A program made the translations under genes and the position numbers. Below the pieces are notes generated by a model. It ran no database searches. It worked only from the letters and a program-made list of their open reading frames with translations, and was not told the origin of the DNA. From a bacterium (GTDB lineage: Bacteria > Patescibacteriota > JABMPQ01 > JAUVWW01): a stretch of 64,000 bases of DNA. Below are positions 14,136 to 25,956 of this stretch, one piece after another (position 1 is the stretch's first letter; each line of letters begins with the position of its first letter). Where the stretch lies: positions 70,716 through 134,715 of the forward strand of contig JAUVWW010000001.1 of the NCBI GenBank assembly GCA_030603885.1. The letters run 5' to 3'.

Positions 14136-15188
14136 ATGTTTGATAAATTATTTGGATCACTATCAAAAGATCTAGGAGTAGATTTGGGCACTGCTAATAC
14201 CCTGGTTTATGTTAAGGGAAAAGGCATTGTCATCAACGAGCCTTCGGTGGTAGCTTTTAATAAGAAGACTGGACAGATTTTGGCCATTGGAAACGAAGCC
14301 AGAAAAATGGTAGGAAAAACCCCTGCCCATATCGTAGCTTCAAAACCTTTGGTAGATGGAGTAATATCTGATTTTGAGGTAACGGAAAAAATGTTGAGAT
14401 ATTTTATAGAAAAAGTGCAAGGGGAAGGATTTTCTATTTTCCCAAAGCCCAGGGTAGTCATTGGTATTCCTCTAGGGGTAACAGAAGTAGAAAAAAGAGC
14501 GGTTGAGGATGCGACTATCTCTGCTGGAGCAAGAAAAGCTTACCTTATTGAAGAACCTATGGCTGCAGCTATAGGAGCCAGACTTCCGATTCAAGATCCA
14601 GCAGGATCTATGATTGTAGATATAGGAGGAGGAACTTGTGAAATAGCAGTAATATCTTTGGGCGGGGTAGTGACCTCAAAATCTTTGAGGATTGCTGGAG
14701 ATGAAATGGATCAAGATATAATTCAATTTGCAAGAGATAGCTATAACTTGCTTTTAGGAGAGAGAACAGCAGAAGAAATTAAAATAGCCATTGGTTCAGC
14801 CCATGAATTAAAAGAACCTCTTGAGACTATGATGCGGGGAAGAGATTTAATTACTGGACTTCCTAAAGAAGTAAAAATTAATGATCAAGAGACAAGAGAG
14901 GCACTTTCTAGAACCGTTCATCTTATAATCACTGCTATTAAAGATACTATTGAGGCTACTCCGCCAGAGCTGGTAGCTGATATTATGAAAAAGGGTATAG
15001 TTATGACCGGCGGAGGCTCTTTGCTTAAAGGTTTTGCTCAACTTGTTCAAGAAGAAACTAGGATGCCAACACATTTAGCCGAAGATCCTTTGACTTGTGT
15101 AGTAAGAGGATGTGGAGTTGTACTCGAAGATATTGATACTCTAAAAGAAGTGCTGGTTGCCACCCAGTATGAAAAACCATTAAGGTAA
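14136..15188 (+). CDS. mreB: rod shape-determining protein MreB (paralog 2)
   Basis: VDLGTANTLVYV and DIGGGTCEIAVISLGG motifs. It lies directly upstream of mreC. Confidence 0.9.
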   Translation: MFDKLFGSLSKDLGVDLGTANTLVYVKGKGIVINEPSVVAFNKKTGQILAIGNEARKMVGKTPAHIVASKPLVDGVISDFEVTEKMLRYFIEKVQGEGFSIFPKPRVVIGIPLGVTEVEKRAVEDATISAGARKAYLIEEPMAAAIGARLPIQDPAGSMIVDIGGGTCEIAVISLGGVVTSKSLRIAGDEMDQDIIQFARDSYNLLLGERTAEEIKIAIGSAHELKEPLETMMRGRDLITGLPKEVKINDQETREALSRTVHLIITAIKDTIEATPPELVADIMKKGIVMTGGGSLLKGFAQLVQEETRMPTHLAEDPLTCVVRGCGVVLEDIDTLKEVLVATQYEKPLR

Positions 15189-15218
15189 GAATGTCTAATG
15201 TCTAATTTTTAATGTCTA

Positions 15219-16013
15219 ATGTTTCGCAAGCCAGCTCAAATATTTACAATATCTATAATTATCATCATTGCCCTTATTGTTTTTCATCAACTAGGCTGGC
15301 TTAAATCTGCAGAGGGAATTGCATTGAGAGGTTTATCTCCCATCGGAGGTTTTTTTTATAAGGTAGGAAAAAGGACAGCTGATTTTTTTGGTTTGATAGG
15401 TTCTATTAGAGATTTAGAGAGACAAAACCTTGAGCTACAGGAAAAAGTAAACCAGCTTATAGTAGAAAATGCAAAGCTGAAAGAAGTAGAGAGAGAAAAT
15501 GAGCTGTTGCGTAAGCAGTTAGATTTCGTTAAATCTTCAGAACATAAGCTGCTTTCAGCTTTTATTGTAGCTTTTGACCCAAGTGGACTTTTTCAACTTA
15601 TTACTATAAATAGAGGAGAGAAGGATGGAGTTAGGCAAGGTATGCCAGTAGTTGTATCAGGAGGGATTTTAGTAGGGAAGGTTAAAGAAACAACCAGTAC
15701 AACTTCACAAGTACTTTTGATTACTGACTCATCCAGTAGCATTTCTGGCTTAATTCAGGAATCACAAGCCACTGGAGTGGTTAAAGGAGAAATGAAACTA
15801 GGATTGGTTATGGATATGATCCCTCAAGATGCAGAAGTAAAAAATGGAGATCGTGTTTTAACCTCTAGCTTAGGTGGAGAGTTTCCTGAAGGCCTAGTTA
15901 TTGGGCAAGTTGAAGAAGTACAAAGGCGTGAGGGTGAGCTATTTCAGAAAGCAAGAATAAAACCAGCTTGTGATTTTAGAGAATTGGAAATAGTTTCTGT
16001 AATATTAAAATAA
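15219..16013 (+). CDS. mreC: rod shape-determining protein MreC
   Basis: N-terminal TM, a coiled-coil (LELQEKVNQLIVENAKLKEVERENELLRKQL) and beta-rich C-terminal domains. It sits between mreB and the downstream mreD. Confidence 0.85.
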   Translation: MFRKPAQIFTISIIIIIALIVFHQLGWLKSAEGIALRGLSPIGGFFYKVGKRTADFFGLIGSIRDLERQNLELQEKVNQLIVENAKLKEVERENELLRKQLDFVKSSEHKLLSAFIVAFDPSGLFQLITINRGEKDGVRQGMPVVVSGGILVGKVKETTSTTSQVLLITDSSSSISGLIQESQATGVVKGEMKLGLVMDMIPQDAEVKNGDRVLTSSLGGEFPEGLVIGQVEEVQRREGELFQKARIKPACDFRELEIVSVILK

Positions 16014-18803
16014 ATGACCAAAGAAAAAGCTAAGAAGAAAATCAAAGAACTTGTTAAAGATTACGAAGGTATAAAAAAGAGAGGTGAGGTTGGGTTATAC
16101 AAAGAAGAGACTACGAAACAACGATTTATTCAGCCTTTATTTAAAGCTCTGGGTTGGGATTTCAAAGTTGATGTTTGGCCCGAGGAAAAGGTTTCTAAAG
16201 GCAGGGTAGATTACGCTTTTAAATTAAATAACATTACTAAGTTTTTTGTAGAAACGAAATCATTGAAGATAGGTTTAGATAATCCCGACTATGATAAACA
16301 AGTAATTAACTATGGTTGGCTTAAGGATATAACCTGGGTGGTCTTAACTAATTTTGAGGAGTTAAAAATCTTTAATTCGGAATTGAAAGAAGAAAACCTA
16401 GTTCTTGATTTAACTTATGATAGATATTTAAAAGATTTTGATGATCTTTGGCGTTTAAGTAAAGAAGCTTTTATAAAAGGAGAACTTGATAGATGGGCAG
16501 AAAAATATGGCAAGAAAGCCAAGAGATTGAAAGTAGGAGAACAACTTTTTGAGGATTTATTACAATGGAGAAAATTTTTATCTGATAATGTATATCAGCT
16601 TCTAGGTTTATCAAAAGAAGAGATCAGTGAGGGGGTTCAGAGAATTCTGGACCGCCTTATTTTTATAAGAACTGCTGAAGATAGGGGGATAGAAGAAAAG
16701 ATTTTACTTCCCAAGCTAAGAGAATGGGAAGATAAAGGACGTAAGCAAGAATTTATGGAAGTCCTTAGTAAGGTTTTTAGAGATTTTGATGAAGGATATA
16801 ACAGTGAATTATTTGATCATCATGACTGCGAGAAGTGGGGGTTGGGAACAGAAGTTTTAGAAAAAGTAGTTAAAGGATTGTATAAAACCAAAGATGGTTT
16901 GGATTATGATTTTAGTGCTATTGGTAGTGATGTGCTGGGTGGAATCTATGAGCAATATTTAGGACATTTATTAGAGACGATTAAAGGAGAAACCAAGGTG
17001 ATTAGTGGCCGTGCCAAACGCAAAGAAAAGGGAATTTATTATACCCCTAAATTCATCGTTGATTATATTGTTAAAAATACTTTAGGCGAAGTTTTGAAAA
17101 ATAAGAAACCAAATGAGATAAGGAAGTTAAAAGTTTTAGATCCGGCTTGCGGCTCTGGATCATTTTTACAGAGAGCTCATCAAGAGATTGTTGATTACTT
17201 AGAAGAAAAGAAATCAGAAATCAAAGATGAAAAGAGTAAACTTGGTGCTATCGCTAAATTAATAAAAGAAAAAGAGGGCAAAAAAGAACTTTCTGTAGCT
17301 CAAAAAATTGAGATTTTAAGAAATAATATTTATGGGGTAGATCTAGATCATCAAGCAGTGGAGATTGCTCGTTTAAATTTATTATTAAAGGTTCTTAAAA
17401 AGAGACAAAGACTTCCTTTACTTGATGATACTATTAAAGAAGGTAATTCTTTAATTTCTGGAGATGAGAAAGAGTTGAAGAAATATTTTGGAGATAAATG
17501 GAAAGAGAAAAAACCTTTCAATTGGAAAGAGGAGTTTGAGGAAGTTTTTAGACAAGAAGGATTTGATGTGATTATTGGAAATCCGCCTTATGTGGGTTCC
17601 TTAGAGATTTCAAAAACAAGTTCGAAAGGAGAAAAGGATTATCTCAAAGAAAAATATAGATCTGCTCGTGGCGTTTACGACTTATATGTAGTGTTTTTAG
17701 AAAAGTCCATCAGATTACTTAAAGAGAAAGGATTGTTAGGGTTTATAGTTCCAAATAAGTTTATGTCTACAGATTATGGATTCCATCTCAGAAAATATAT
17801 CTTGGAGAAATGTTCGATAAGAGAAATAATTGACGTGTCTAGTTTGTCTGTGTTTAAAGGAGTGGCAGTCTATCCAATAATCCTCATTTTACAAAAAGAA
17901 AAAAGAAAAAAATATAGGGATAGAAATCAACTTTTATTTAATGAACTAGAAAATATTAATAAATTAGATTTTAAAGAAGGTAGATTAGTTCACCAATCTA
18001 TCTTTACACGAAATAATAAATATGTATTTAGTAGTTTTATTAGTGAAGGTATGATAGGATTGATAAAAAAATTTGAGAAACATACCATTCCATTATGCAA
18101 AGTTTCTGACGTTAGTAGTGGCACAACCGGTTTTGATTATTCAAGATATGGAAAGTTGATTACAGAACAGAAGCCTGAAAAAGAATATAGAAAATTTATT
18201 ATCACGCGTAATATTGAACCCTATTATATTTCCTGGGGTAAAAGAATAAATTATTTAAAAAGGTCTTTCATTCATCCATATCTAGCTTATAGCAAAAAAA
18301 TTATTTCGAAAGGCAAATGGGATCTTTTTAAAGACAAAAAAATTACAATTAGAGGCCTATCAAAAAGATTAACTGCCGCTGCCGATAATGAAGGTTTTGC
18401 TTTAGGGGTAGGAGTTTACGCCTTAAGAAATTTGAAGATTAATAAGAAATTTCTTTTAGCTCTCTTAAATTCAAAGGTTCTAGATTATTATTATCGGGTA
18501 AAGTTCTCTTCAAAGCATCTCGCTGGTGGTTATTTGGGCTTTAATGTAGGACAACTTTCCCAGCTCCCTATTTATAGAATTGATCTCTCTAAAAAATCTG
18601 ATAAGGAAAAACATGACAAACTGCTTAGATTAGTAAATAAGATATTAGAATTAAATAAAGAATTACAGAAGTTTGGAGACAAGATTACAGATAAAAGAAA
18701 AAAGATCGAGAAAGAAATTGAGAGGACGGATAGGAAGATTGATGGGGTGGTATATAAATTGTATGGATTAACTAGAAAGGAGATTAAAATAGTGGAAAAT
18801 TGA
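16014..18803 (+). CDS. MmeI-family Type IIG restriction endonuclease / N6-adenine DNA methyltransferase (single-chain RM)
   Basis: N-terminal PD-(D/E)xK motif with D66...E80-x-K82 (VDYAF...VETK). AdoMet motif I (VLDPACGSGSFL). Motif IV NPPY (IIGNPPYVG). A C-terminal TRD-like region. 929 aa, which is MmeI-like size. Confidence 0.85.
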   Translation: MTKEKAKKKIKELVKDYEGIKKRGEVGLYKEETTKQRFIQPLFKALGWDFKVDVWPEEKVSKGRVDYAFKLNNITKFFVETKSLKIGLDNPDYDKQVINYGWLKDITWVVLTNFEELKIFNSELKEENLVLDLTYDRYLKDFDDLWRLSKEAFIKGELDRWAEKYGKKAKRLKVGEQLFEDLLQWRKFLSDNVYQLLGLSKEEISEGVQRILDRLIFIRTAEDRGIEEKILLPKLREWEDKGRKQEFMEVLSKVFRDFDEGYNSELFDHHDCEKWGLGTEVLEKVVKGLYKTKDGLDYDFSAIGSDVLGGIYEQYLGHLLETIKGETKVISGRAKRKEKGIYYTPKFIVDYIVKNTLGEVLKNKKPNEIRKLKVLDPACGSGSFLQRAHQEIVDYLEEKKSEIKDEKSKLGAIAKLIKEKEGKKELSVAQKIEILRNNIYGVDLDHQAVEIARLNLLLKVLKKRQRLPLLDDTIKEGNSLISGDEKELKKYFGDKWKEKKPFNWKEEFEEVFRQEGFDVIIGNPPYVGSLEISKTSSKGEKDYLKEKYRSARGVYDLYVVFLEKSIRLLKEKGLLGFIVPNKFMSTDYGFHLRKYILEKCSIREIIDVSSLSVFKGVAVYPIILILQKEKRKKYRDRNQLLFNELENINKLDFKEGRLVHQSIFTRNNKYVFSSFISEGMIGLIKKFEKHTIPLCKVSDVSSGTTGFDYSRYGKLITEQKPEKEYRKFIITRNIEPYYISWGKRINYLKRSFIHPYLAYSKKIISKGKWDLFKDKKITIRGLSKRLTAAADNEGFALGVGVYALRNLKINKKFLLALLNSKVLDYYYRVKFSSKHLAGGYLGFNVGQLSQLPIYRIDLSKKSDKEKHDKLLRLVNKILELNKELQKFGDKITDKRKKIEKEIERTDRKIDGVVYKLYGLTRKEIKIVEN

Positions 18804-18843
18804 TATGAGAAACGCTATCCAAAGTTGGTAAAAATAATTTTTT

Positions 18844-19671
18844 ATGAAGTTTGATTTGAGAAACTGGAAATATCCCAATTTAAAAAAGTTTCTAGAAAAT
18901 CCTTTAACTATGGAAGGTTTAGATTATGATTTTAAAGAAAAAATACCAGATACTAGAGATGAAAAAGGGAAGCGAAGATTAAGAGAAAGTTTTTGTGCTT
19001 TTGCTAATAGTGATGGGGGTTATATATTTTTTGGAATAGATAACAATAAAAGACCTAAAGGAATATATGAGAGCGATTACGAATTTGAAACAAAACTTAA
19101 CAGAATTGTAACTAAAAAGATACTTCCCTCGATTCCTGTTTCAAATTGGCAGATCGCAAAAGATATTAATTTGCCAAGATCAGATGGAGTAGTGTTTGTA
19201 GTGCATATTTTCCCAAGTTTGAGTATCGACAAACCCCATATGACGTCTGAAAGAATTTTTATAAGAGAGCATGGGGAAACTAAGGCGCTAGATGATGGAA
19301 GAGATGTCCAAAAATTATTTGCTGTGAAGTTTAATCGTTATAACATCAAAGAATTAGAATACGACTTAGAAGAGATTAAGGAATGTAGGTTTACTCCTGA
19401 TGAGATAGATGTAATTTATTTAAAACAGTTAAAACATTATTTAGAAAACCAGATTAAGAAGAGAATCCCTGGGTTTCATAGTTTAGATTCTAAGTTAGAT
19501 AGGATCATGCAGTTGTACGAAGAGATAAAGAAAGAAATGTCTGAGGGATATAGAACAAATCAGGCTTCTAACGTTCTGAATAGTGAGAAGTTAATGAAGA
19601 AAGAAGGTTTATTAGGTTCTTCTGTGAAAGAGTTTTTAAAAGAATACAAAAATCTACATAACATACCATGA
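18844..19671 (+). CDS. AlbA_2 / Schlafen-like domain protein
   Basis: Core SFCAFANSDGGYIFFGIDNNKRPKGI matches the AlbA_2 signature (AFANt-GGyliiGvdd...G). Its stop overlaps the next start (ATGA). Confidence 0.7.
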   Translation: MKFDLRNWKYPNLKKFLENPLTMEGLDYDFKEKIPDTRDEKGKRRLRESFCAFANSDGGYIFFGIDNNKRPKGIYESDYEFETKLNRIVTKKILPSIPVSNWQIAKDINLPRSDGVVFVVHIFPSLSIDKPHMTSERIFIREHGETKALDDGRDVQKLFAVKFNRYNIKELEYDLEEIKECRFTPDEIDVIYLKQLKHYLENQIKKRIPGFHSLDSKLDRIMQLYEEIKKEMSEGYRTNQASNVLNSEKLMKKEGLLGSSVKEFLKEYKNLHNIP

Positions 19672-22600
19672 GTAAACAGGGTCAATACAATTACAGCGGA
19701 ATAAATTTCCAATCCTGGGCAGCAATGTCGTTGTTCTTGCAGTATTTGCGTGATTCTGATTTCTCACATATTTATTTGGAAGCCCCTGAGTTTCAAGATT
19801 TCAATTTAGTTTTTAATGATGGGAGAAAAATTATTTGCGAAGCAAAAAGTTGGAAGAAGAAATTTAGTTTTGCTGACTTAAGAAAAATTCTTACCTCTAT
19901 ACTAGATAAAGAAAATATAGGCAAAAATGATGAAGTTCTGATAATTTGCAGAAATTTAGATAAGAAATTAGAAAAAAAAGTTGAAAATATTAAATATTTT
20001 AGAGAGATCATTGCCCCTTATTTTAATAAGGAAAAGAGATTTTCAAAAGAAGAAATTGAAGTTTTACCTAAAGTAAATTTCTGGAAAGTTTCTGGAAAGA
20101 TTAATGAAAAAATCATATATTCCCTTTTTAGTGAATTATTGAATTTCTGGATACCAGAAGAAGATTTGAAGAGGATAGTAGACAGTATTTTAATGCAAAA
20201 AATTTATAAATGTTCTGCCAAGGGAACAGCATTTACAAGAATAGATCTTTTAATGGAAATAGAAAGTTTAAAAAGAGAGGTTATTGAGAAAAGCGGTGAT
20301 TTCGATGAAAATAGAAGGAAAATCGAAGATCAGCTTAAAGATGTGATCAAAGCAATTAAAGATAATAAATCATTAGTATGGACTCATGGCAGAGTTTCTG
20401 CACTTTCTGCTCAGCCGAATTTAATGTATTTTGTACTCCAAAAGTTTAAAGAGAAGAAAATTGATAAACTTGAGGACTGGAAAGACTTATGGGAGCTTAA
20501 TAAAGTATATGCGTTTTCTTTCGATATATTTAAAATTTTCGAGAGCAATCTTCATAACAGGAAAAACAGGGTATACATTTTAAAATTTATTAGAGAGAAT
20601 CTCCTGGGCTTTAGAAGGTTTTTTAGATCAGACTTCTTTGAAATGGGTGTAGTAAAAATTATGAATGGAGTCATAGAACAAGATAAAACTTTGCTTAATG
20701 AAGCTTTTGAAATTGTAAAGGAATTATTAAAAAGATACGAAAATGAATACTTCTATCTTAAAAGTAATCAAGATTCAGAATGGAGAAGAGGAGAAATTTG
20801 TAAATTACTTAAGAAGATTTATGAGAATAGCGATGAGAGTCTAAAAAACAGAATTTATGAATTAATAACTAATCATTTCAATCTAATTGCAGATGATAGC
20901 GAGTTTAGTTATTATACTCCCGAAGTTGTATTTAAAATTTTAGAAAATTGCTTAACAGATGGTTGGAATAAATTTGAAAAAAGATTTATTGAATTAAGTA
21001 AAATTTTAGCGGAGCAATATGAAAAGTTTTACAAGCGATTTGGTAAAAAAACAAAATTCAAGGGTTGGGAATTAATGGGTGGAGTAACTACGTCTTGGGG
21101 CCATGATTATAAAGTAATAGATAGACACTTTATTAGATTTACTTTAAAACCCGCATTAGGGAAATATTATAAAACTAACAAAAAGAGATGTTGGTCTTTT
21201 GTGATGGGAGAGTGTATTTCAACTACAAACAGAGTTAGTAGAAAGGGTCCTGATTTTTTGAATCGTGCTTCAGTTTCTATTATTTTGGATAGGTATAGAA
21301 ATAGAAATGCCAAAGTATCTAATAAAGCTTTTAGGATACTAAAAGAGTTTATTTTATCGTGGAAAGGCATACCTCATAAATCCGATTTAATTTATCAGGA
21401 GCTCCGCGGAGATTTCTCAGATGATAAGAAATGGAAATTAGTAAAAATAAGCATTGATAAATATAAACTGCCCATTAATTCTTTCGTGGAACAGATTGTT
21501 TTGGAGCTAGCTAAAAAGAGACATAAAAAATCAAAGGAAATATTGAGAGGTTGGATTAGAGATCCGAAGTATTATAAAAGAGGAATTTTTGAAAGAAATG
21601 TAATTGTAAATATTTCTCAATTTTTAGATGTTTCGTTTAATGAGGGGGTAGAGATGTTTAAGGATTTTATTAATGGAGATTATTTTCTAAAGAAAATGGA
21701 TTATTTTAATGCTTTTGAGGCAGCAAGAGTATTAAATAAAATTATAGATAGAAATTTCAACACAGGGTTAGAAATTCTCGAAACCTTATCTCAAAAATTA
21801 AAATTAACCGATAACGAACAAATTTTATTGTGTAGTAGCTTGACTGACAAAGACGATTCTAAACAAGAAAATAAAAAGGTTTTAATAAAGATTTATGAAG
21901 AGTTTTTGGGTCCATTCTTAGATAGTTTAGATAATGATATTAAAAAAATTGAAAAGAGAATTACTCGGCCACAATCTAGAGAAGCAATTGTAGAATTTGC
22001 TGATGCCCTGGTTAAACATCAGAAAATTCCAGAGGCAATGAGAATAGTAAGATTGTTTGTTAATGATTCTGATCCTTGTACTCCGGAGAAGGTCGATTCT
22101 GAAGATCTCAAGGGAGAATATGATAAACATAAACAAATTGAGCAAGGCGAAGATACTCTTACTATTAATACTGTAAGAGGTCGGTGTGCTTGGGTATTAA
22201 TGAATTGTGCAGTTTTGGCTGGTAGGGACCATATCGAGGAAATTATTAATTTAACAGAAAAATTAACAAAAGACAAAAATTACTATATTCAATGGATGTC
22301 TTGCCATTCTTTATCTCAATTAGCAAGAAATCGGCTTACAATAATGCCTGAAAATAAAAAAGAACTATTCTTTAATAAAGATAGAGAAAAAGCATTGAAA
22401 ATGGCTAAAAGAGTTGAAAAAATCGCTTTTGAATTATTAGAAAAATTCTCTAAGCTAGGACCCAAGCCAAGAGATGTTTTGATGAGAGCATTACTAAAAG
22501 TATTTGATCATATAAGAGGATTAAACCAGAAAGATGCAAGATTATTACTAAAGAAAATTTCCAAATGCGGAGAGAAAGTTTTTAGTGAAGCCGCTCCATT

Positions 22601-23300
22601 GTTTATTTACTTTGCTGAATTTAGACAAAAAGATTTTAAGAATTGGAAATGGCAGATGCCAGAATTATACGATGATTTGGAAAATTTCGACAATAAAGAA
22701 TTCCAAAAGTTTTTAGAAAATATTCTTAAGAAGAGAAATTCAAAAATTAATTCTCATTTTGCTTGGCGTTTCTGGAAGCTTACAAAGGAATCTGTGTCGG
22801 ATAAGGCAGATATAAAAAATGTGGTTAAATATAGCGAAGCATTCGAAATATCCGACAGATATTTGAATATTCTTTCAGATAGCTACGACCATCAAACATT
22901 TAAAAATATTTATTACTTTATTCGAGAGAATGTTGATAAGCGATTTAAAGAGTGTTATAAACTTTGGCGAAAGTGCCTAGCAAAAGAAAAGCCTGTTATG
23001 GAAAAGTTAATAAAAGAGGAGAAAATATACGAAACATCTTGGTGGCCATTTTATCATAACGACGAAATCTTAACAATCATCAAACAAAAAGCTGGTAATA
23101 AAGAATTTTTGAATTCTTTTGAATTTTTATTGAATTATCCAAATGAGGCTAACATTGGTGATATAAAAAATGTAGTCGAAGTTTTGCAGAGTTTACCATC
23201 CAAGTATAATCAGAGAGTAGAAAAAATCTTTGAAATGTTGATAGATAGAGATCCAAATTTCTATGACATAAAAGAAAGCTGGGTAGAAAGAGAGAAATAG
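19668..23300 (+). CDS. large (1210 aa) uncharacterised protein: N-terminal PD-(D/E)xK-like motif plus a long alpha-helical repeat body, no P-loop
   Basis: N-terminal GINFQSW...IYLE...DFNLVFNDGRKIICEAKSWKK, a D...E-x-K arrangement reminiscent of DUF4297/NERD-type nucleases. No GxxxxGK[ST] anywhere. K/E/L-rich helical sequence throughout. Confidence 0.6.
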   Translation: MSKQGQYNYSGINFQSWAAMSLFLQYLRDSDFSHIYLEAPEFQDFNLVFNDGRKIICEAKSWKKKFSFADLRKILTSILDKENIGKNDEVLIICRNLDKKLEKKVENIKYFREIIAPYFNKEKRFSKEEIEVLPKVNFWKVSGKINEKIIYSLFSELLNFWIPEEDLKRIVDSILMQKIYKCSAKGTAFTRIDLLMEIESLKREVIEKSGDFDENRRKIEDQLKDVIKAIKDNKSLVWTHGRVSALSAQPNLMYFVLQKFKEKKIDKLEDWKDLWELNKVYAFSFDIFKIFESNLHNRKNRVYILKFIRENLLGFRRFFRSDFFEMGVVKIMNGVIEQDKTLLNEAFEIVKELLKRYENEYFYLKSNQDSEWRRGEICKLLKKIYENSDESLKNRIYELITNHFNLIADDSEFSYYTPEVVFKILENCLTDGWNKFEKRFIELSKILAEQYEKFYKRFGKKTKFKGWELMGGVTTSWGHDYKVIDRHFIRFTLKPALGKYYKTNKKRCWSFVMGECISTTNRVSRKGPDFLNRASVSIILDRYRNRNAKVSNKAFRILKEFILSWKGIPHKSDLIYQELRGDFSDDKKWKLVKISIDKYKLPINSFVEQIVLELAKKRHKKSKEILRGWIRDPKYYKRGIFERNVIVNISQFLDVSFNEGVEMFKDFINGDYFLKKMDYFNAFEAARVLNKIIDRNFNTGLEILETLSQKLKLTDNEQILLCSSLTDKDDSKQENKKVLIKIYEEFLGPFLDSLDNDIKKIEKRITRPQSREAIVEFADALVKHQKIPEAMRIVRLFVNDSDPCTPEKVDSEDLKGEYDKHKQIEQGEDTLTINTVRGRCAWVLMNCAVLAGRDHIEEIINLTEKLTKDKNYYIQWMSCHSLSQLARNRLTIMPENKKELFFNKDREKALKMAKRVEKIAFELLEKFSKLGPKPRDVLMRALLKVFDHIRGLNQKDARLLLKKISKCGEKVFSEAAPLFIYFAEFRQKDFKNWKWQMPELYDDLENFDNKEFQKFLENILKKRNSKINSHFAWRFWKLTKESVSDKADIKNVVKYSEAFEISDRYLNILSDSYDHQTFKNIYYFIRENVDKRFKECYKLWRKCLAKEKPVMEKLIKEEKIYETSWWPFYHNDEILTIIKQKAGNKEFLNSFEFLLNYPNEANIGDIKNVVEVLQSLPSKYNQRVEKIFEMLIDRDPNFYDIKESWVEREK

Positions 23301-23461
23301 GGATGGTTCTATTTTTCTAGATCCACTCACCAAAAAATCCCCTCCCTAACGTACCAATCTTTTAAGCTCCACAAAGAATCAAGAGAATTAATTGAGGAGG
23401 CGAAGAGGGAGGTGGAAAATTTAATTAAGAAATAATTTATGGAAATTTCAAGATAAGTTAC

Positions 23462-23995
23462 ATGAAAACTTTTTTCTTCATCCTCAGCCTCGTTTTTGTT
23501 ATCCTCCTTCAGGTAGCTTTTTTGCCTCATTTTACTTTATATCAAGCTATACCTAATTTAATCTTGGCAGTTCTTGTTTCTTGGTGTATACTTCAGAGTT
23601 ACAATCAAGCTTATGTATTAGCTTTCCTAGCGGGCCTATCTTTGGATCTTTACTCCGGAACTTTGTTTGGAATACATACTCTGACGCTAGTTTGCGTAGC
23701 CTTGATTACTTATTTAATTACTCAGCATTTTCTAAATAAAGACGATTTATTTACTAGACTAATGATAATTATTTTGGCTACTTTAGGCTATCAGTTTATA
23801 TTTTTAGGCTTTACATTTTTAGCCAAGCTATTACACTTAGTGGATTACAGTATCCCTTTATCCAACCAATATCTTGGTTTTCTTCTCTGGCAAATTCTAG
23901 TTAATGCTATAGTTTTACTTATAATTTTCCCTATGATAAAAGCTAGCCATAATTTTTTGCTGAGACATGAAAAGAGGGCAAGAGTCGAAGTATAA
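23462..23995 (+). CDS. mreD: rod shape-determining protein MreD
   Basis: Five-TM small protein with an MreD-like AFLAGLSLDLYSGTLFGIHTL motif. It lies immediately upstream of PBP2. Confidence 0.75.
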   Translation: MKTFFFILSLVFVILLQVAFLPHFTLYQAIPNLILAVLVSWCILQSYNQAYVLAFLAGLSLDLYSGTLFGIHTLTLVCVALITYLITQHFLNKDDLFTRLMIIILATLGYQFIFLGFTFLAKLLHLVDYSIPLSNQYLGFLLWQILVNAIVLLIIFPMIKASHNFLLRHEKRARVEV

Positions 23996-23997
23996 AC

Positions 23998-25956
23998 ATG
24001 ACTAATATGAAGGATCCATTTTCAACACCCAACTATCTTTCAGACAAAGAATCAAAAGGCAAAAAAATTACTCCTTCCAAGAGAGGGGATGAGTGGGAGG
24101 AGAGTCTTTTTGAAACAGACGAAGAAGAGGAAGTAAGAACTGTTCAACCTCTTTTTAATTATGCCAAAATAAAATGGCTGTATTTAATAGCCATTTTAGT
24201 CTTTTTAGTCCTAGCAAGTAGAATTTTTTATTTACAAGTTGTAGCTTCTGATGAATTCAGGCAGGCAGCTGAAGAAAATCGTTTTAGGGTCCATGTTATT
24301 CGGGCTCCCAGAGGAATAGTTTTAGATAGCCAAAGAAACCTTTTGGTTCGCAATATTCCTAGTTTTGATATTATAGCTATTCCAGCTGATCTACCCAAGG
24401 ATGAAAATGATAGGAGACAACTTTGGTCTACCTTAATGTCTAAAATTGACATTTCACAAGATGAACTAAACCAAGCTCTTTTAGATATAAATTATACTTC
24501 CTGGCAACCTATTTTGATTAAAAAGGGTATCCTGAGAGATCAAGCCTTGATTTTAGAAACTCAACTTCAAGATCTCCCAGGCATAGTACTAGAGAAAAAT
24601 CCTATCAGAGAATATTCTGAGGCTGAGTTTTTTGCTCACATCCTAGGCTATACTGGAAAAATTAGTCAGGAGGAATTAGAAAAAAGAGAAGATTATTTAC
24701 TAAACGACTACATAGGAAAATCAGGGCTGGAGTTATATTATGAAGATACTTTACGAGGAAAGAATGGGAAAGAGCAAGTGGAAGTGGCAGCTGGAGGTAA
24801 GCAGGAAAGGATTTTAGCTACAGAAGAGCCTATAACTGGTAGTGATTTGGTTCTATCGATAGAGAGAGATTTACAGAAAAAGATGCATGAACTTCTGAAA
24901 AATGGAATGGTTAAAGCAGGGTCCTCCAAAGCAGCTGCCATAGCTTTAGATCCCAGAAATGGTGAAATTTTAGGAATAGTTAGTCTTCCTTCTTATGATA
25001 ATAATTTATTTGCCAAAGGTATTAGTGAGGAAGACTACCAAAGATTAGCTCAGGATCAAGATCGACCTCTTTTCTCAAGAGATATATCCGGAACATATCC
25101 CCCTGGTTCTACTATAAAGCCAGTTATGGCGGCAGCAGGATTACAAGAGGGTGTAATTACCAGAAATACCATTATTAATGATACAGGCGTTATTACTGTG
25201 CCTCATGAATATAATCCTGATATTACCTATACTTATTACGGCTGGGCTAGAGGAGGGCTTGGTCCAATGAACGTAATTTCTGCTATTGCTAAGTCTTCGG
25301 ATATATATTTTTATACTGTAGGAGGAGGGCAAGAATCTTTGGGAATTAAAGGTTTAGGAGCAGAAAAAATTGCCGAATATTTTAAAAAATTTGGACTAGA
25401 GTCTAAGCTAGGCATTGATTTACCCAATGAAGCAGAGGGTCTTGTTCCTACTCCAGAGTGGAAAGAGAAAGCAAAAGGAGAAATGTGGTATTTAGGAAAT
25501 ACCTATCACGAGTCTATTGGACAAGGGGATGTACTAGTAAGTCCTCTGCAAGTGGTTTCTTGGACAGCAACCATTGCCAATGGAGGAAGATTATATAAAC
25601 CTCATCTAGTTAGACAAATTATTAACCCTGATGGTTCTACCCAAAATACTCAACCAGAAGTTATTCGATCAGATTTTATTTCAAGTTATAACATCAATTT
25701 GGCCCGCCAAGGAATGAGAGAAGCAGTCCTTTCGGGTTCAAGCGTAGCTTTAACTGATTTACCTATTGCAGCAGCTGGAAAAACAGGCACGGCTGAAACA
25801 GGCAAAGGAACTACTCATGCCTGGTTTATCTGTTTTGCTCCCTATGAAAATCCAGAAATTGCTCTTGTAGTTTTAATTGAAAAAGGAGGAGAAGGACACG
25901 AAACAGCAGTGCCTATAGCTAAAGAAATTTTGAAATGGTGGTTTGAGAATAAATAA
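23998..25956 (+). CDS. mrdA: penicillin-binding protein 2 (peptidoglycan D,D-transpeptidase)
   Basis: N-terminal TM, a PBP dimerisation domain, and transpeptidase motifs STIKP (SxxK), SSD/SxN region and KTGTAE (KTG). Confidence 0.88.
   Translation: MTNMKDPFSTPNYLSDKESKGKKITPSKRGDEWEESLFETDEEEEVRTVQPLFNYAKIKWLYLIAILVFLVLASRIFYLQVVASDEFRQAAEENRFRVHVIRAPRGIVLDSQRNLLVRNIPSFDIIAIPADLPKDENDRRQLWSTLMSKIDISQDELNQALLDINYTSWQPILIKKGILRDQALILETQLQDLPGIVLEKNPIREYSEAEFFAHILGYTGKISQEELEKREDYLLNDYIGKSGLELYYEDTLRGKNGKEQVEVAAGGKQERILATEEPITGSDLVLSIERDLQKKMHELLKNGMVKAGSSKAAAIALDPRNGEILGIVSLPSYDNNLFAKGISEEDYQRLAQDQDRPLFSRDISGTYPPGSTIKPVMAAAGLQEGVITRNTIINDTGVITVPHEYNPDITYTYYGWARGGLGPMNVISAIAKSSDIYFYTVGGGQESLGIKGLGAEKIAEYFKKFGLESKLGIDLPNEAEGLVPTPEWKEKAKGEMWYLGNTYHESIGQGDVLVSPLQVVSWTATIANGGRLYKPHLVRQIINPDGSTQNTQPEVIRSDFISSYNINLARQGMREAVLSGSSVALTDLPIAAAGKTGTAETGKGTTHAWFICFAPYENPEIALVVLIEKGGEGHETAVPIAKEILKWWFENK

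Follow-up and report, generated by a model that had tools for sequence, protein, structure and literature searches.

Gene content of the locus

The analysed window, a 64,000-nt stretch of a Patescibacteriota contig (JAUVWW010000001.1), contained a three-gene island (Table 1) with a GC content of 0.29-0.32, compared with ~0.36 in its flanks. The genes bordering the island were identified by Pfam as MreC and MreD, in a mreB, mreC, mreD and pbp2 neighbourhood, and the island sits within this essential operon. The last two genes, encoding proteins of 275 and 1210 aa, had been proposed as a translationally coupled candidate defence pair. Both ORFs were intact, and the ATGA stop/start overlap was present as described. 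The 1210-codon ORF is far beyond what chance would produce, given that it lies in DNA of ~30% GC and has more than 130 full-length homologues.

Table 1. Features of the island and of its two downstream genes (window coordinates)
Feature	Position	Strand	Basis or remark
Low-GC three-gene island between mreC and mreD	16014..23461	.	GC content, Pfam on flanks
Type IIG (MmeI/Eco57I-like) restriction-modification enzyme, 929 aa	16014..18803	+	Upstream member of the three-gene island
Partner/effector gene, 275 aa: single-lobe Schlafen (AlbA_2) nuclease domain, then ~125-aa helical tail	18844..19671	+	Pfam, family profile
Schlafen catalytic motif Ex4DxK (E24-GLDY-D29-F-K31)	18913..18936	+	Motif definition in PMC13056530
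AlbA_2 domain proper, residues 24-149	18913..19290	+	Pfam envelope
ATGA stop/start overlap (translational coupling)	19668..19671	+	Seen in sequence
Large conserved protein, 1210 aa, constant cassette component	19668..23300	+	Homologue and cluster searches
Cap4/DUF4297-fold PD-(D/E)xK nuclease head, residues 1 to about 240	19668..20387	+	
Predicted catalytic core of head: E38, D44, E58-x-K60	19779..19847	+	Conservation, structure model
HEAT/ARM-type alpha-solenoid, residues ~280-1210, putative sensor or scaffold	20505..23297	+	

The 929-aa product of the first gene matched the PADLOC model REase_MTase_IIG (8.9e-140, residues 5-718) and the Pfam families Eco57I (1.8e-47), N6_Mtase, MmeI_Mtase and TaqI_C, together with a weak HSDR_N match at the N-terminus (residues 29-126). 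Its sequence combines an N-terminal nuclease region, a gamma-class N6-adenine methyltransferase and a target-recognition domain in one polypeptide, as in type IIG enzymes. An assignment to BREX (PglX) was rejected: BREX_1_MTaseX scored 117 bits against an NCBIfam cutoff of 500, and none of the BREX partners PglZ, BrxC and BrxL was found among the nearby genes.

A Schlafen domain protein lacking a fused sensor

The AlbA_2/Schlafen core originally read from the 275-aa protein was borne out by Pfam (SLFN_AlbA_2, PF04326; E 2.3e-19; 70.5 bits against a cutoff of 25.3), and a profile of its family matched the mammalian SLFN8/5/14/12/11 structures (best E 7.5e-12). The Ex4(E/D)xK motif, defined in PMC13056530 along with the tRNase and defence role of Schlafens, was intact as Ex4DxK in 19 of 22 Schlafen partners of the large protein family. 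E24 and K31 were invariant in the alignment (A4), and the motif of the window protein aligned with ESASIEFK of the SLFN C-lobe. By analogy with characterised bacterial and human Schlafens, the protein is predicted to be a tRNase.

The helical tail (~125 aa) matched no family, and no fused sensor was recognised in it. Whereas 97% of bacterial Schlafens (pSlfns) are fused to sensor domains (PMC13056530), the partners of the large protein are bare effector domains, which argues that regulation is supplied by the large protein.

Nuclease head and helical solenoid of the large protein

The large protein belonged to no family in Pfam, NCBIfam or PADLOC. PADLOC v2.0 component models returned 0 families at E<=1, Pfam Cap4_nuclease (PF14130) gave no match at E<=1, and no profile search placed the protein in a known non-defence family, in keeping with the original prediction. 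A word-indexed search yielded 136 homologues; the 120 matches listed shared 35-100% identity and were nearly all full-length. The family comprised 282 representative clusters in 1.84e9 proteins. It occurred mainly in Patescibacteria and, in a patchy manner, in Delta- and Gammaproteobacteria, Armatimonadota, Margulisiibacteriota, Elusimicrobia, Actinomycetota and archaea. It was known only from metagenome-assembled genomes, and was absent from plasmid, phage and IMG/VR collections.

The N-terminal head, initially described as a DUF4297-like PD-(D/E)xK domain, indeed had a Cap4-type PD-(D/E)xK fold, and its best matches were all defence nucleases. Across 63 sequences E38, D44 and K60 were invariant and E58 was at least 90% conserved, the four residues being placed on strands 1-3 of the structure model; the head is probably a DNase. 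The sole profile link of the large protein to Cap4 was a weak hhalign match (E 5e-4, 32% probability over 199 columns) with the Cap4-type family of partners. Short family forms without the head also exist.

Residues 240-1210 formed an all-alpha solenoid in the predicted structure (pLDDT 89.8) with structural matches to generic HEAT/ARM proteins only. Profile searches (Pfam, PADLOC, NCBIfam) found no NTPase family in the large protein, which agrees with the helical body without Walker A motif first reported. Conservation along the solenoid was uniform, without a hypervariable patch, unlike that of sensors tracking fast-evolving phage proteins.

An interchangeable partner slot upstream of the large gene

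Co-occurrence of homologues of the two genes, set as a test of the original prediction, was observed at 22 distinct loci, where the same slot was filled by 22 distinct homologues of the 275-aa protein. In a reverse check, further AlbA_2-partner homologues on adequate contigs also preceded a ~1200-aa family member, and no AlbA_2 partner of this subfamily was found in any other position. The pairing first proposed therefore holds, but it is not exclusive: at least seven unrelated families, AlbA_2 among them, occupy the slot. A partner gene of a recognised family lay upstream on the same strand, abutting or overlapping the large gene, in about 87 of 96 distinct loci (distinct partners: Slfn 22, CapA 22, Mrr-like 18, Cap4 10, C3 8, CHAT 5 and C6 2). 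The occupants other than Schlafens were two Cap4-like families, Mrr-like proteins, another D..ExK family, CHAT proteases and one unknown family. Catalytic-type residues were kept in each nuclease partner family, and the Cap4_nuclease and CHAT assignments were backed by Pfam. The Cap4-type family was the only one among the partners with (weak) PADLOC matches to LmuA and HamA.

The conserved unit is thus a variable effector gene followed by the large protein. The pairing is obligate, though about five loci lacked a recognisable partner, and is accompanied by translational coupling: partner and large gene overlapped by -4 or -8, or were separated by a gap of <=7 nt, in most related loci and in all partner families. 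The nearest-neighbour large protein had a partner of a different family in 52 of 77 cases, and partners differed even between large proteins 90-95% identical. Nucleotide homology began exactly at the start codon of the large gene, so that recombination breakpoints coincided with the gene boundary. At one locus (L062), the solenoid protein carried a CapA-type partner domain as an in-frame fusion.

Neither hhalign nor a comparison of C-termini revealed a docking element shared by the unrelated partners, and head-partner covariation was weak, which leaves unexplained how one nearly invariant solenoid would control seven enzyme families. Exchange exactly at the gene boundary, partners sharing no adaptor, near-identical large proteins tolerating any partner and a few large genes without one could also arise if the slot, lying between an R-M operon and the large gene, were simply a favoured insertion site for small nucleases acting alone, two independent defence genes without functional coupling being the outcome. 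This is improbable, since overlaps or short gaps were kept across all partner families, an in-frame fusion exists, AlbA_2 partners of the window subfamily were seen only before the large gene, and bare catalytic partners would be toxic or unregulated alone. Near-identical putative sensors combined with unrelated effectors amount to a natural experiment in modular immunity, in which control of different chemistries by a single scaffold can be tested.

Polar linkage to restriction-modification operons

Restriction-modification (R-M) genes took the same upstream position as the type IIG gene of the window in many related loci. The position directly upstream held a same-strand R-M gene in 30 of 77 loci, and the position directly downstream held one in 1 of 76; within 3.5 kb, the corresponding figures were 49 of 77 and 4 of 76. 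The linked genes encoded Type IIG, Type I (hsdRMS) and Type III-like (mod/res) systems, and their codons often overlapped those of the neighbouring gene. The pair is thus polar-linked to R-M operons of three types, and the upstream gene, mentioned in the original prediction, is part of this recurrent arrangement. Other neighbours included nSTAND3-Mrr, an OLD-family ATPase, GmrSD-Schlafen, HpaII, Vsr, integrases and serine recombinases, and some loci (e.g. L001 and L130) had no R-M neighbour.

Precedents exist for guarding of restriction enzymes: the PrrC anticodon nuclease is kept latent by EcoprrI, and PARIS senses Ocr. The cassette could likewise monitor the adjacent restriction enzyme, or sense anti-restriction proteins or DNA mimics, so that its nucleases fire only when restriction is inhibited. 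Besides the polar linkage to three R-M types, the uniform conservation of the solenoid, which suits a conserved target over diverse phage proteins, and the predicted tRNase activity of the window partner, resembling PrrC (PMC1484252), point in this direction. However, solenoids 85-95% identical were attached to different R-M types, making direct binding of one R-M enzyme unlikely; the closest relative, 70% identical, lies behind a ResIII gene and not behind one of Type IIG; the pair also occurs without nearby R-M; and Pfam, PADLOC and NCBIfam profiles revealed no homology to PrrC, RloC or PARIS components. Such a guard is unlikely; it would refine the trigger and is compatible with the main model set out below.

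The mobile context (recombinases and integrases), the position of the window island within an essential operon and the coupling of a small toxic-enzyme gene to its partner are also features that an addiction module would have, with the small nuclease as toxin and the large protein as antitoxin stabilising a mobile R-M island without phage sensing. This is quite improbable: a 1200-aa antitoxin with its own conserved, predicted active nuclease would be atypical, and unrelated "toxins" beside 95%-identical large proteins run against the usual toxin-antitoxin co-evolution. Toxin-first gene order and such size asymmetry are unusual for toxin-antitoxin systems. A housekeeping role in RNA processing or DNA repair, outside conflict, is very improbable given the rarity of the family, its patchiness across phyla, the low-GC insertion, the linkage to R-M and mobile elements, and the rapid swapping of partner enzymes.

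Proposed mode of action

The two genes probably belong to an as yet uncharacterised type of anti-phage cassette, mobile by horizontal transfer, that usually sits at the 3' end of an R-M operon and acts as a second-line abortive-infection layer. We infer this defence function from gene content and genomic context. In uninfected cells, the solenoid protein, through physical interaction with its partner, would keep in check both its own nuclease head and the sensor-less small effector. An infection cue escaping R-M would release or activate both effectors; such a cue might be an anti-restriction factor, DNA structures of phage origin or generated by restriction, or some other conserved trait of phage or host. 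The Schlafen partner may then cut RNA and the Cap4 head DNA, leading to arrest of the cell or phage. The HEAT/ARM solenoid would serve as sensor or scaffold, and the upstream gene as a plug-in effector slot. The need for a fused nuclease plus a second, separate effector is puzzling and counts against this model, as do the uniformly conserved solenoid, the failure to find a docking element common to the partners, the loci without an R-M neighbour or a recognisable partner, the headless short forms and the restriction of the family to metagenome-assembled genomes.

A broader version, which we consider unlikely, would see an undescribed, NTPase-free immune family in which a highly conserved HEAT-solenoid/Cap4 protein, as universal adaptor, arms any of at least seven unrelated effectors (an RNase, several DNases and a caspase-like protease) that are exchanged as entire genes. 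By sensing either failed restriction or one of its conserved by-products, the family would back up Type I, IIG and III systems as a generic fail-safe. If the defence role of the cassette is confirmed, it would represent a new anti-phage family at home in the poorly explored Patescibacteria/CPR, whose tiny genomes make every retained defence gene informative.

Relationship to known defence systems

The 275-aa protein shares with pSlfns the AlbA_2/Schlafen signature, the catalytic Ex4(E/D)xK motif and, as for many bacterial Schlafens, an association with R-M (PMC13462974). Characterised pSlfns carry the sensor in the same polypeptide, whereas here a ~125-aa tail is accompanied by a separate 1210-aa protein, and in the cassette DNases or CHAT proteases can take the place of the Schlafen. 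The pSlfn papers cited here make no mention of such a partnership, and a split, two-gene system would extend the Schlafen field. Schlafen RNases at R-M and BREX loci have already been recognised as "backup suicidal effectors" (PMC12839542, PMC13462974). The BREX-type examples similarly place extra nucleases, including Schlafen RNases, in one operon with methylation-based defence, but there the Schlafens occur as fusions with histidine-kinase-like and wHTH domains, a HEAT/Cap4 scaffold protein is not described (PMC12839542), and the window methyltransferase is a Type IIG R-M enzyme rather than PglX.

Among the closest known systems to the head are the Cap4-family effectors (CBASS Cap4, Lamassu LmuA, Hachiman HamA, the Avs3 N-terminal domain and HerA-DUF4297). 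In contrast to these, the large protein lacks a SAVED/CARF ligand sensor (Cap4), an SMC/ABC ATPase partner (Lamassu), a helicase (Hachiman), a STAND NTPase (Avs) and HerA. Membership of STAND/Avs (AVAST) was rejected, as the central STAND P-loop NTPase was not found in the large protein.

The original prediction of an undescribed module stood as far as the large protein family is new to Pfam, NCBIfam and PADLOC, but the combination of an effector with an NTPase-free repeat sensor has a precedent in DSR2. According to PMC10981675 and PMC11290490, DSR2 joins an N-terminal effector to a long HEAT-like helical sensor without NTPase and is activated by binding of a phage component; it resembles the large protein in size (~1000-1200 aa) and in the fusion of an effector to an NTPase-free helical sensor. 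Its effector is a SIR2 NADase encoded by a single gene without a plug-in partner, whereas the large protein has a Cap4 nuclease and lacks both the N-terminal SIR2 NADase and the DSR2-type C-terminal domain, on which ground membership was rejected. DSR2 was not among the top solenoid structural matches and no sequence relationship was detected. If confirmed, the cassette would add a further example, besides DSR2, to the NTPase-independent immune proteins that use repeat sensors.

PrrC/EcoprrI and RloC provide a latent RNase embedded in or attached to an R-M locus as a back-up once restriction is defeated (PMC1484252, PMC2610378). These are single proteins combining an ABC-ATPase with a HEPN-type nuclease and are tied to Type I loci, and neither domain (ABC-ATPase N-domain, HEPN-type ACNase C-domain) was detected by Pfam, PADLOC or NCBIfam in the two proteins of the window. 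The present cassette, in contrast, attaches to three R-M types with many effector chemistries, and this polar attachment makes the PrrC-era idea of dedicated back-up suicide modules testable.

A protein family built on a HEAT-type solenoid

The 1210-aa protein gave no significant match in Pfam, PADLOC v2 or NCBIfam profile searches, which placed it in no known non-defence family, and a PDB sequence-profile search returned only a weak alphaRep/HEAT match. A word-indexed search retrieved 136 proteins (35-100% identity, ~1200 aa), all labelled 'hypothetical'. When the C-terminal 931 residues served as an exhaustive phmmer query, 282 representative clusters among 1.84 billion matched, and 136 of these reached E<=1e-30. 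Most of the family belonged to Patescibacteria, and the rest to Delta- and Gammaproteobacteria, Armatimonadota, Margulisiibacteriota, Elusimicrobia, Actinomycetota and archaea; no family matches came from the plasmid, phage and IMG/VR collections. The nuclease-type D...ExK head noticed in the original prediction was recovered in 63 aligned members, with E38, D44 and K60 invariant and E58 conserved in at least 90%. Along the solenoid, conservation was uniform in the aligned family: no patch was hypervariable, and several polar residues (D485, D529, N532, R533, K571, R771, D800 and R837) were invariant, with H487 nearly so.

Short forms (~900-1020 aa) lacked the Cap4 head, their homology beginning at residues 252-343, and kept an upstream partner, CHAT-like proteases being prominent there. 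Such short forms, with large genes of ~900-1015 aa, occurred at loci L040, L042, L076, L081, L084, L088, L090 and L106. Some distant members of ~1270 aa (P0199, P0216) had an XRE-type HTH_3 domain fused before the head (Pfam E 1e-12 to 1e-14). The large gene was split or truncated by stops at L037, L039 and L048, a set that includes a Euryarchaeota MAG; pseudogenes or faulty assembly may account for these cases.

An upstream slot with several occupants

Loci carrying large-protein homologues were gathered from species-representative genomes (41) and metagenomes (80), with several more obtained via exact look-ups. Where there was room, the large gene almost always had a same-strand ORF of ~190-400 aa upstream, either overlapping it (-4 or -8) or separated from it by at most 7 nt; the predicted ATGA overlap joins the two ORFs in the window. 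Clustering of 96 distinct upstream proteins yielded Schlafen/AlbA_2 (22 distinct proteins, including that of the window), CapA (22; ~300 aa, Cap4-like), Mrr-like (18; ~200 aa), Cap4_nuclease (10; Pfam 1.4e-6, with weak PADLOC LmuA/HamA matches), C3 (8; ~360 aa, D..ExK), CHAT-like protease (5; Pfam CHAT 4.7e-7) and C6 (2; no family identity) partners. Catalytic-type residues were kept in every nuclease family. A few of the 96 were unrelated neighbours, and no recognisable partner was found at five loci.

The AlbA_2 and large genes had been proposed to form a module, and their pairing was indeed conserved, AlbA_2 being only one of several occupants of the slot. In addition to the 22 Schlafen partners preceding a large gene, further AlbA_2-partner homologues (L129, P0264, P0265) each had a ~1200-aa Pfam-less gene directly after them, and the contig bearing P0122 equals in length that bearing P0111. 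Since few matches came from word-indexed searches in which the 275-aa protein or its profile was the query, this reverse test of co-occurrence rests on that handful of cases and the 22 loci derived from the large protein. At L062, a CapA-type domain and the solenoid protein were encoded in one frame (hmmsearch E 9e-70), the former taking the place of the Cap4 head over its first ~178 residues, a Rosetta-stone fusion. A reading in which the two genes share an insertion hot spot without being coupled was given lower confidence.

An all-against-all hhalign comparison linked CapA with Cap4, Cap4 weakly with the head, and clusters C4, C5 and C9 with one another as CHAT-like, and no other families. 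The partners of L076 and L081, of two different types, shared a 78%-identical 95-aa C-terminal extension; the idea that it had broken away from the large protein was rejected, as it did not match the family profile.

Partner exchange and mosaicism

Of 77 large proteins, 52 had a nearest relative whose partner came from another family. Large proteins were 95% identical between L079 (Schlafen) and L082 (Cap4), 93% between L110 (C6) and L112 (Schlafen), and 91% between L016 (C3) and L020 (Schlafen); L079, L082, L010, L016 and L020 make up a 90-95%-identical set. In blastn comparisons, L079 showed 87-91% nucleotide identity to L082, L011, L085 and L107, and its homology was bounded by the start codon and stop of the large gene. 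Partner exchange is recent and cassette-like. In L091, L095 and L096, the solenoid was 86-95% identical to that of L079, L082, L016 and L020 and the head only 43-59%, which places a second breakpoint near residue 238, where nucleotide homology also broke off (near codon 238). No adaptor motif common to all partners, C-terminal or otherwise, was found by hhalign or C-terminus comparison, and head-partner covariation showed a small excess (3.6 vs 1.9 identity points, the pairs being non-independent). Together, the breakpoints, the missing adaptor motif and the weak covariation mark the architecture as a mosaic of three modules, namely partner, Cap4 head and constant solenoid.

The Schlafen partner of the window

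The AlbA_2 core predicted in the 275-aa protein was confirmed by Pfam (SLFN_AlbA_2, residues 24-149, E 2.3e-19). A profile of 19 orthologous partners matched the solved mammalian SLFN8, 5, 14, 12 and 11 (best E 7.5e-12) within the nuclease C-lobe, E24...K31 lying opposite ESASIEFK. The Schlafen RNase catalytic motif, Ex4(E/D)xK (PMC13056530), reads E24-GLDY-D29-F-K31 in the window protein and was intact in 19 of 22 distinct Schlafen-type partners, E24 and K31 being invariant in the alignment of AlbA_2 partners. The ~125 residues that follow the domain were helical and coiled-coil-like, and Pfam and profile searches assigned them to no family. The protein is thus a bare Schlafen nuclease, probably active, without a sensor domain, which is unusual, since 97% of bacterial Schlafens carry fused sensor domains (PMC13056530).

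A restriction-modification island in the mre operon

In the window, the pair and its upstream gene, a genuine Type IIG enzyme (PADLOC 8.9e-140), formed a three-gene block with a GC content of 0.29-0.32 (flanks, ~0.36), wedged between mreC and mreD of an mreB-mreC-mreD-pbp2 operon (Pfam). A BREX PglX identity for the methyltransferase was ruled out by NCBIfam profile comparison. The island splits the cell-shape operon into mreB-mreC and mreD-pbp2, and the mreC stop (16013) is followed at once by the R-M start codon (16014). As no terminator-like site separates the genes in 14136-25956, the island is probably transcribed together with essential morphogenesis genes; promoter and terminator counts over 13.8-24.2 kb were at shuffle level. 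A housekeeping function was given lower confidence.

Coordinates of features in the window and, with locus prefix, at loci carrying large-protein homologues
Feature	Position	Strand	Remark
mreC	15219-16013		5' flank of island (Pfam)
Island	16014-23300		splits the mre operon
929-aa R-M ORF	16014-18803		directly upstream of pair
275-aa ORF	18844-19671	+	intact
1210-aa ORF	19668-23300	+	intact
mreD	23462-23995		3' flank of island (Pfam)
CapA-solenoid fusion	L062:4316-8155		one frame
Integrase/excisionase pair	L130:5115-6609		adjoins cassette
GmrSD_N(DUF262)-AlbA_2 fusion	L053:6613-8706		just downstream of large gene
GmrSD_N(DUF262)-AlbA_2 fusion	L064:7200-9287		just downstream of large gene
GmrSD_N(DUF262)-AlbA_2 fusion	L065:7144-9231		just downstream of large gene
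GmrSD_N(DUF262)-AlbA_2 fusion	L067:9464-11551		just downstream of large gene
GmrSD_N(DUF262)-AlbA_2 fusion	L062:10187-11848		~2 kb downstream
GmrSD_N(DUF262)-AlbA_2 fusion	L046:5687-7390		directly upstream of partner gene
3' gene	L020:11667-12773		~360 aa
3' gene	L027:3753-4841		~360 aa
3' gene	L129:8914-9687		257 aa

Across the loci, an R-M gene lay directly upstream (same strand, gap <=150 nt) in 30 of 77 and directly downstream (any strand, gap ~200 nt or less) in 1 of 76; within 3.5 kb, the counts were 49/77 upstream vs 4/76 downstream. R-M linkage is therefore polar. Recurrent R-M neighbours comprised Type IIG, Type I hsdR/hsdM/hsdS and Type III-like N6/N4 methylases with ResIII helicases, alongside HpaII, C5-methylase with Vsr, nSTAND3-Mrr, OLD-family ATPase-TOPRIM and GmrSD-Schlafen fusions. 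A reading in which the cassette guards the R-M system, given lower confidence, would refine the trigger of the cassette model.

Large serine recombinases, integrases and transposases were also recurrent. Serine recombinases adjoined the cassette at 11 loci (e.g. L022, L016, L017, L028, L033, L034, L036, L037), and L130 had an adjoining integrase/excisionase pair, consistent with carriage on integrative elements. At L129, whose large protein is closest to that of the window (70% identity), the preceding gene was ResIII in place of a Type IIG gene, and a 54% relative had an adjoining integrase and excisionase and no R-M gene; the pair thus passes intact from one R-M type to another and can also occur on its own. 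A toxin-antitoxin or addiction module was a further reading given lower confidence.

Proposed function and related systems

The most economical reading takes the pair as a mobile anti-phage cassette appended to R-M systems. In this view, the solenoid protein would be the constant sensor or scaffold, its Cap4 head a DNase, and the upstream gene an interchangeable effector, in the window a Schlafen RNase that, like characterised Schlafens, would most likely cut tRNA (PMC13056530). Here the trigger and substrates are inferred, as are the phenotype and the interaction between the proteins. Three features pose the main difficulty for this model: conservation along the solenoid is uniform, unrelated partners fit it although no docking element was detected, and one system contains two nucleases.

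The building blocks are already known, and three designs follow a similar logic. In DSR2, a HEAT sensor carries a fused effector and there is no NTPase; in Avs3 or LmuA, a Cap4 head sits upon a regulatory body; the third comprises PrrC (PMC1484252) and what have been called 'backup suicidal effectors' at BREX loci (PMC12839542). The large protein, however, falls outside all these families by sequence or structure. The Schlafen-R-M association has been reported in the 2026 literature (PMC13462974, 'Cluster 4'). Literature searches found no HEAT/Cap4/Schlafen R-M-linked system described, nor any description or PADLOC model of the large protein family, the plug-in effector slot or the polar attachment to three R-M types. 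We rate the cassette as a sensor-effector defence module on a new scaffold family; overall, the original observation was confirmed and its interpretation supported with refinements.

Accessory genes at cassette loci

Six loci additionally carried a GmrSD_N(DUF262)-AlbA_2 fusion and thus have a second, independent Schlafen system, as this architecture was shown to protect E. coli (PMC13056530). The window had no gene of the type that, at L020, L027 and L129, abuts or overlaps the large gene at its 3' end; this gene, Pfam-less and PADLOC-less, could be an optional third component.
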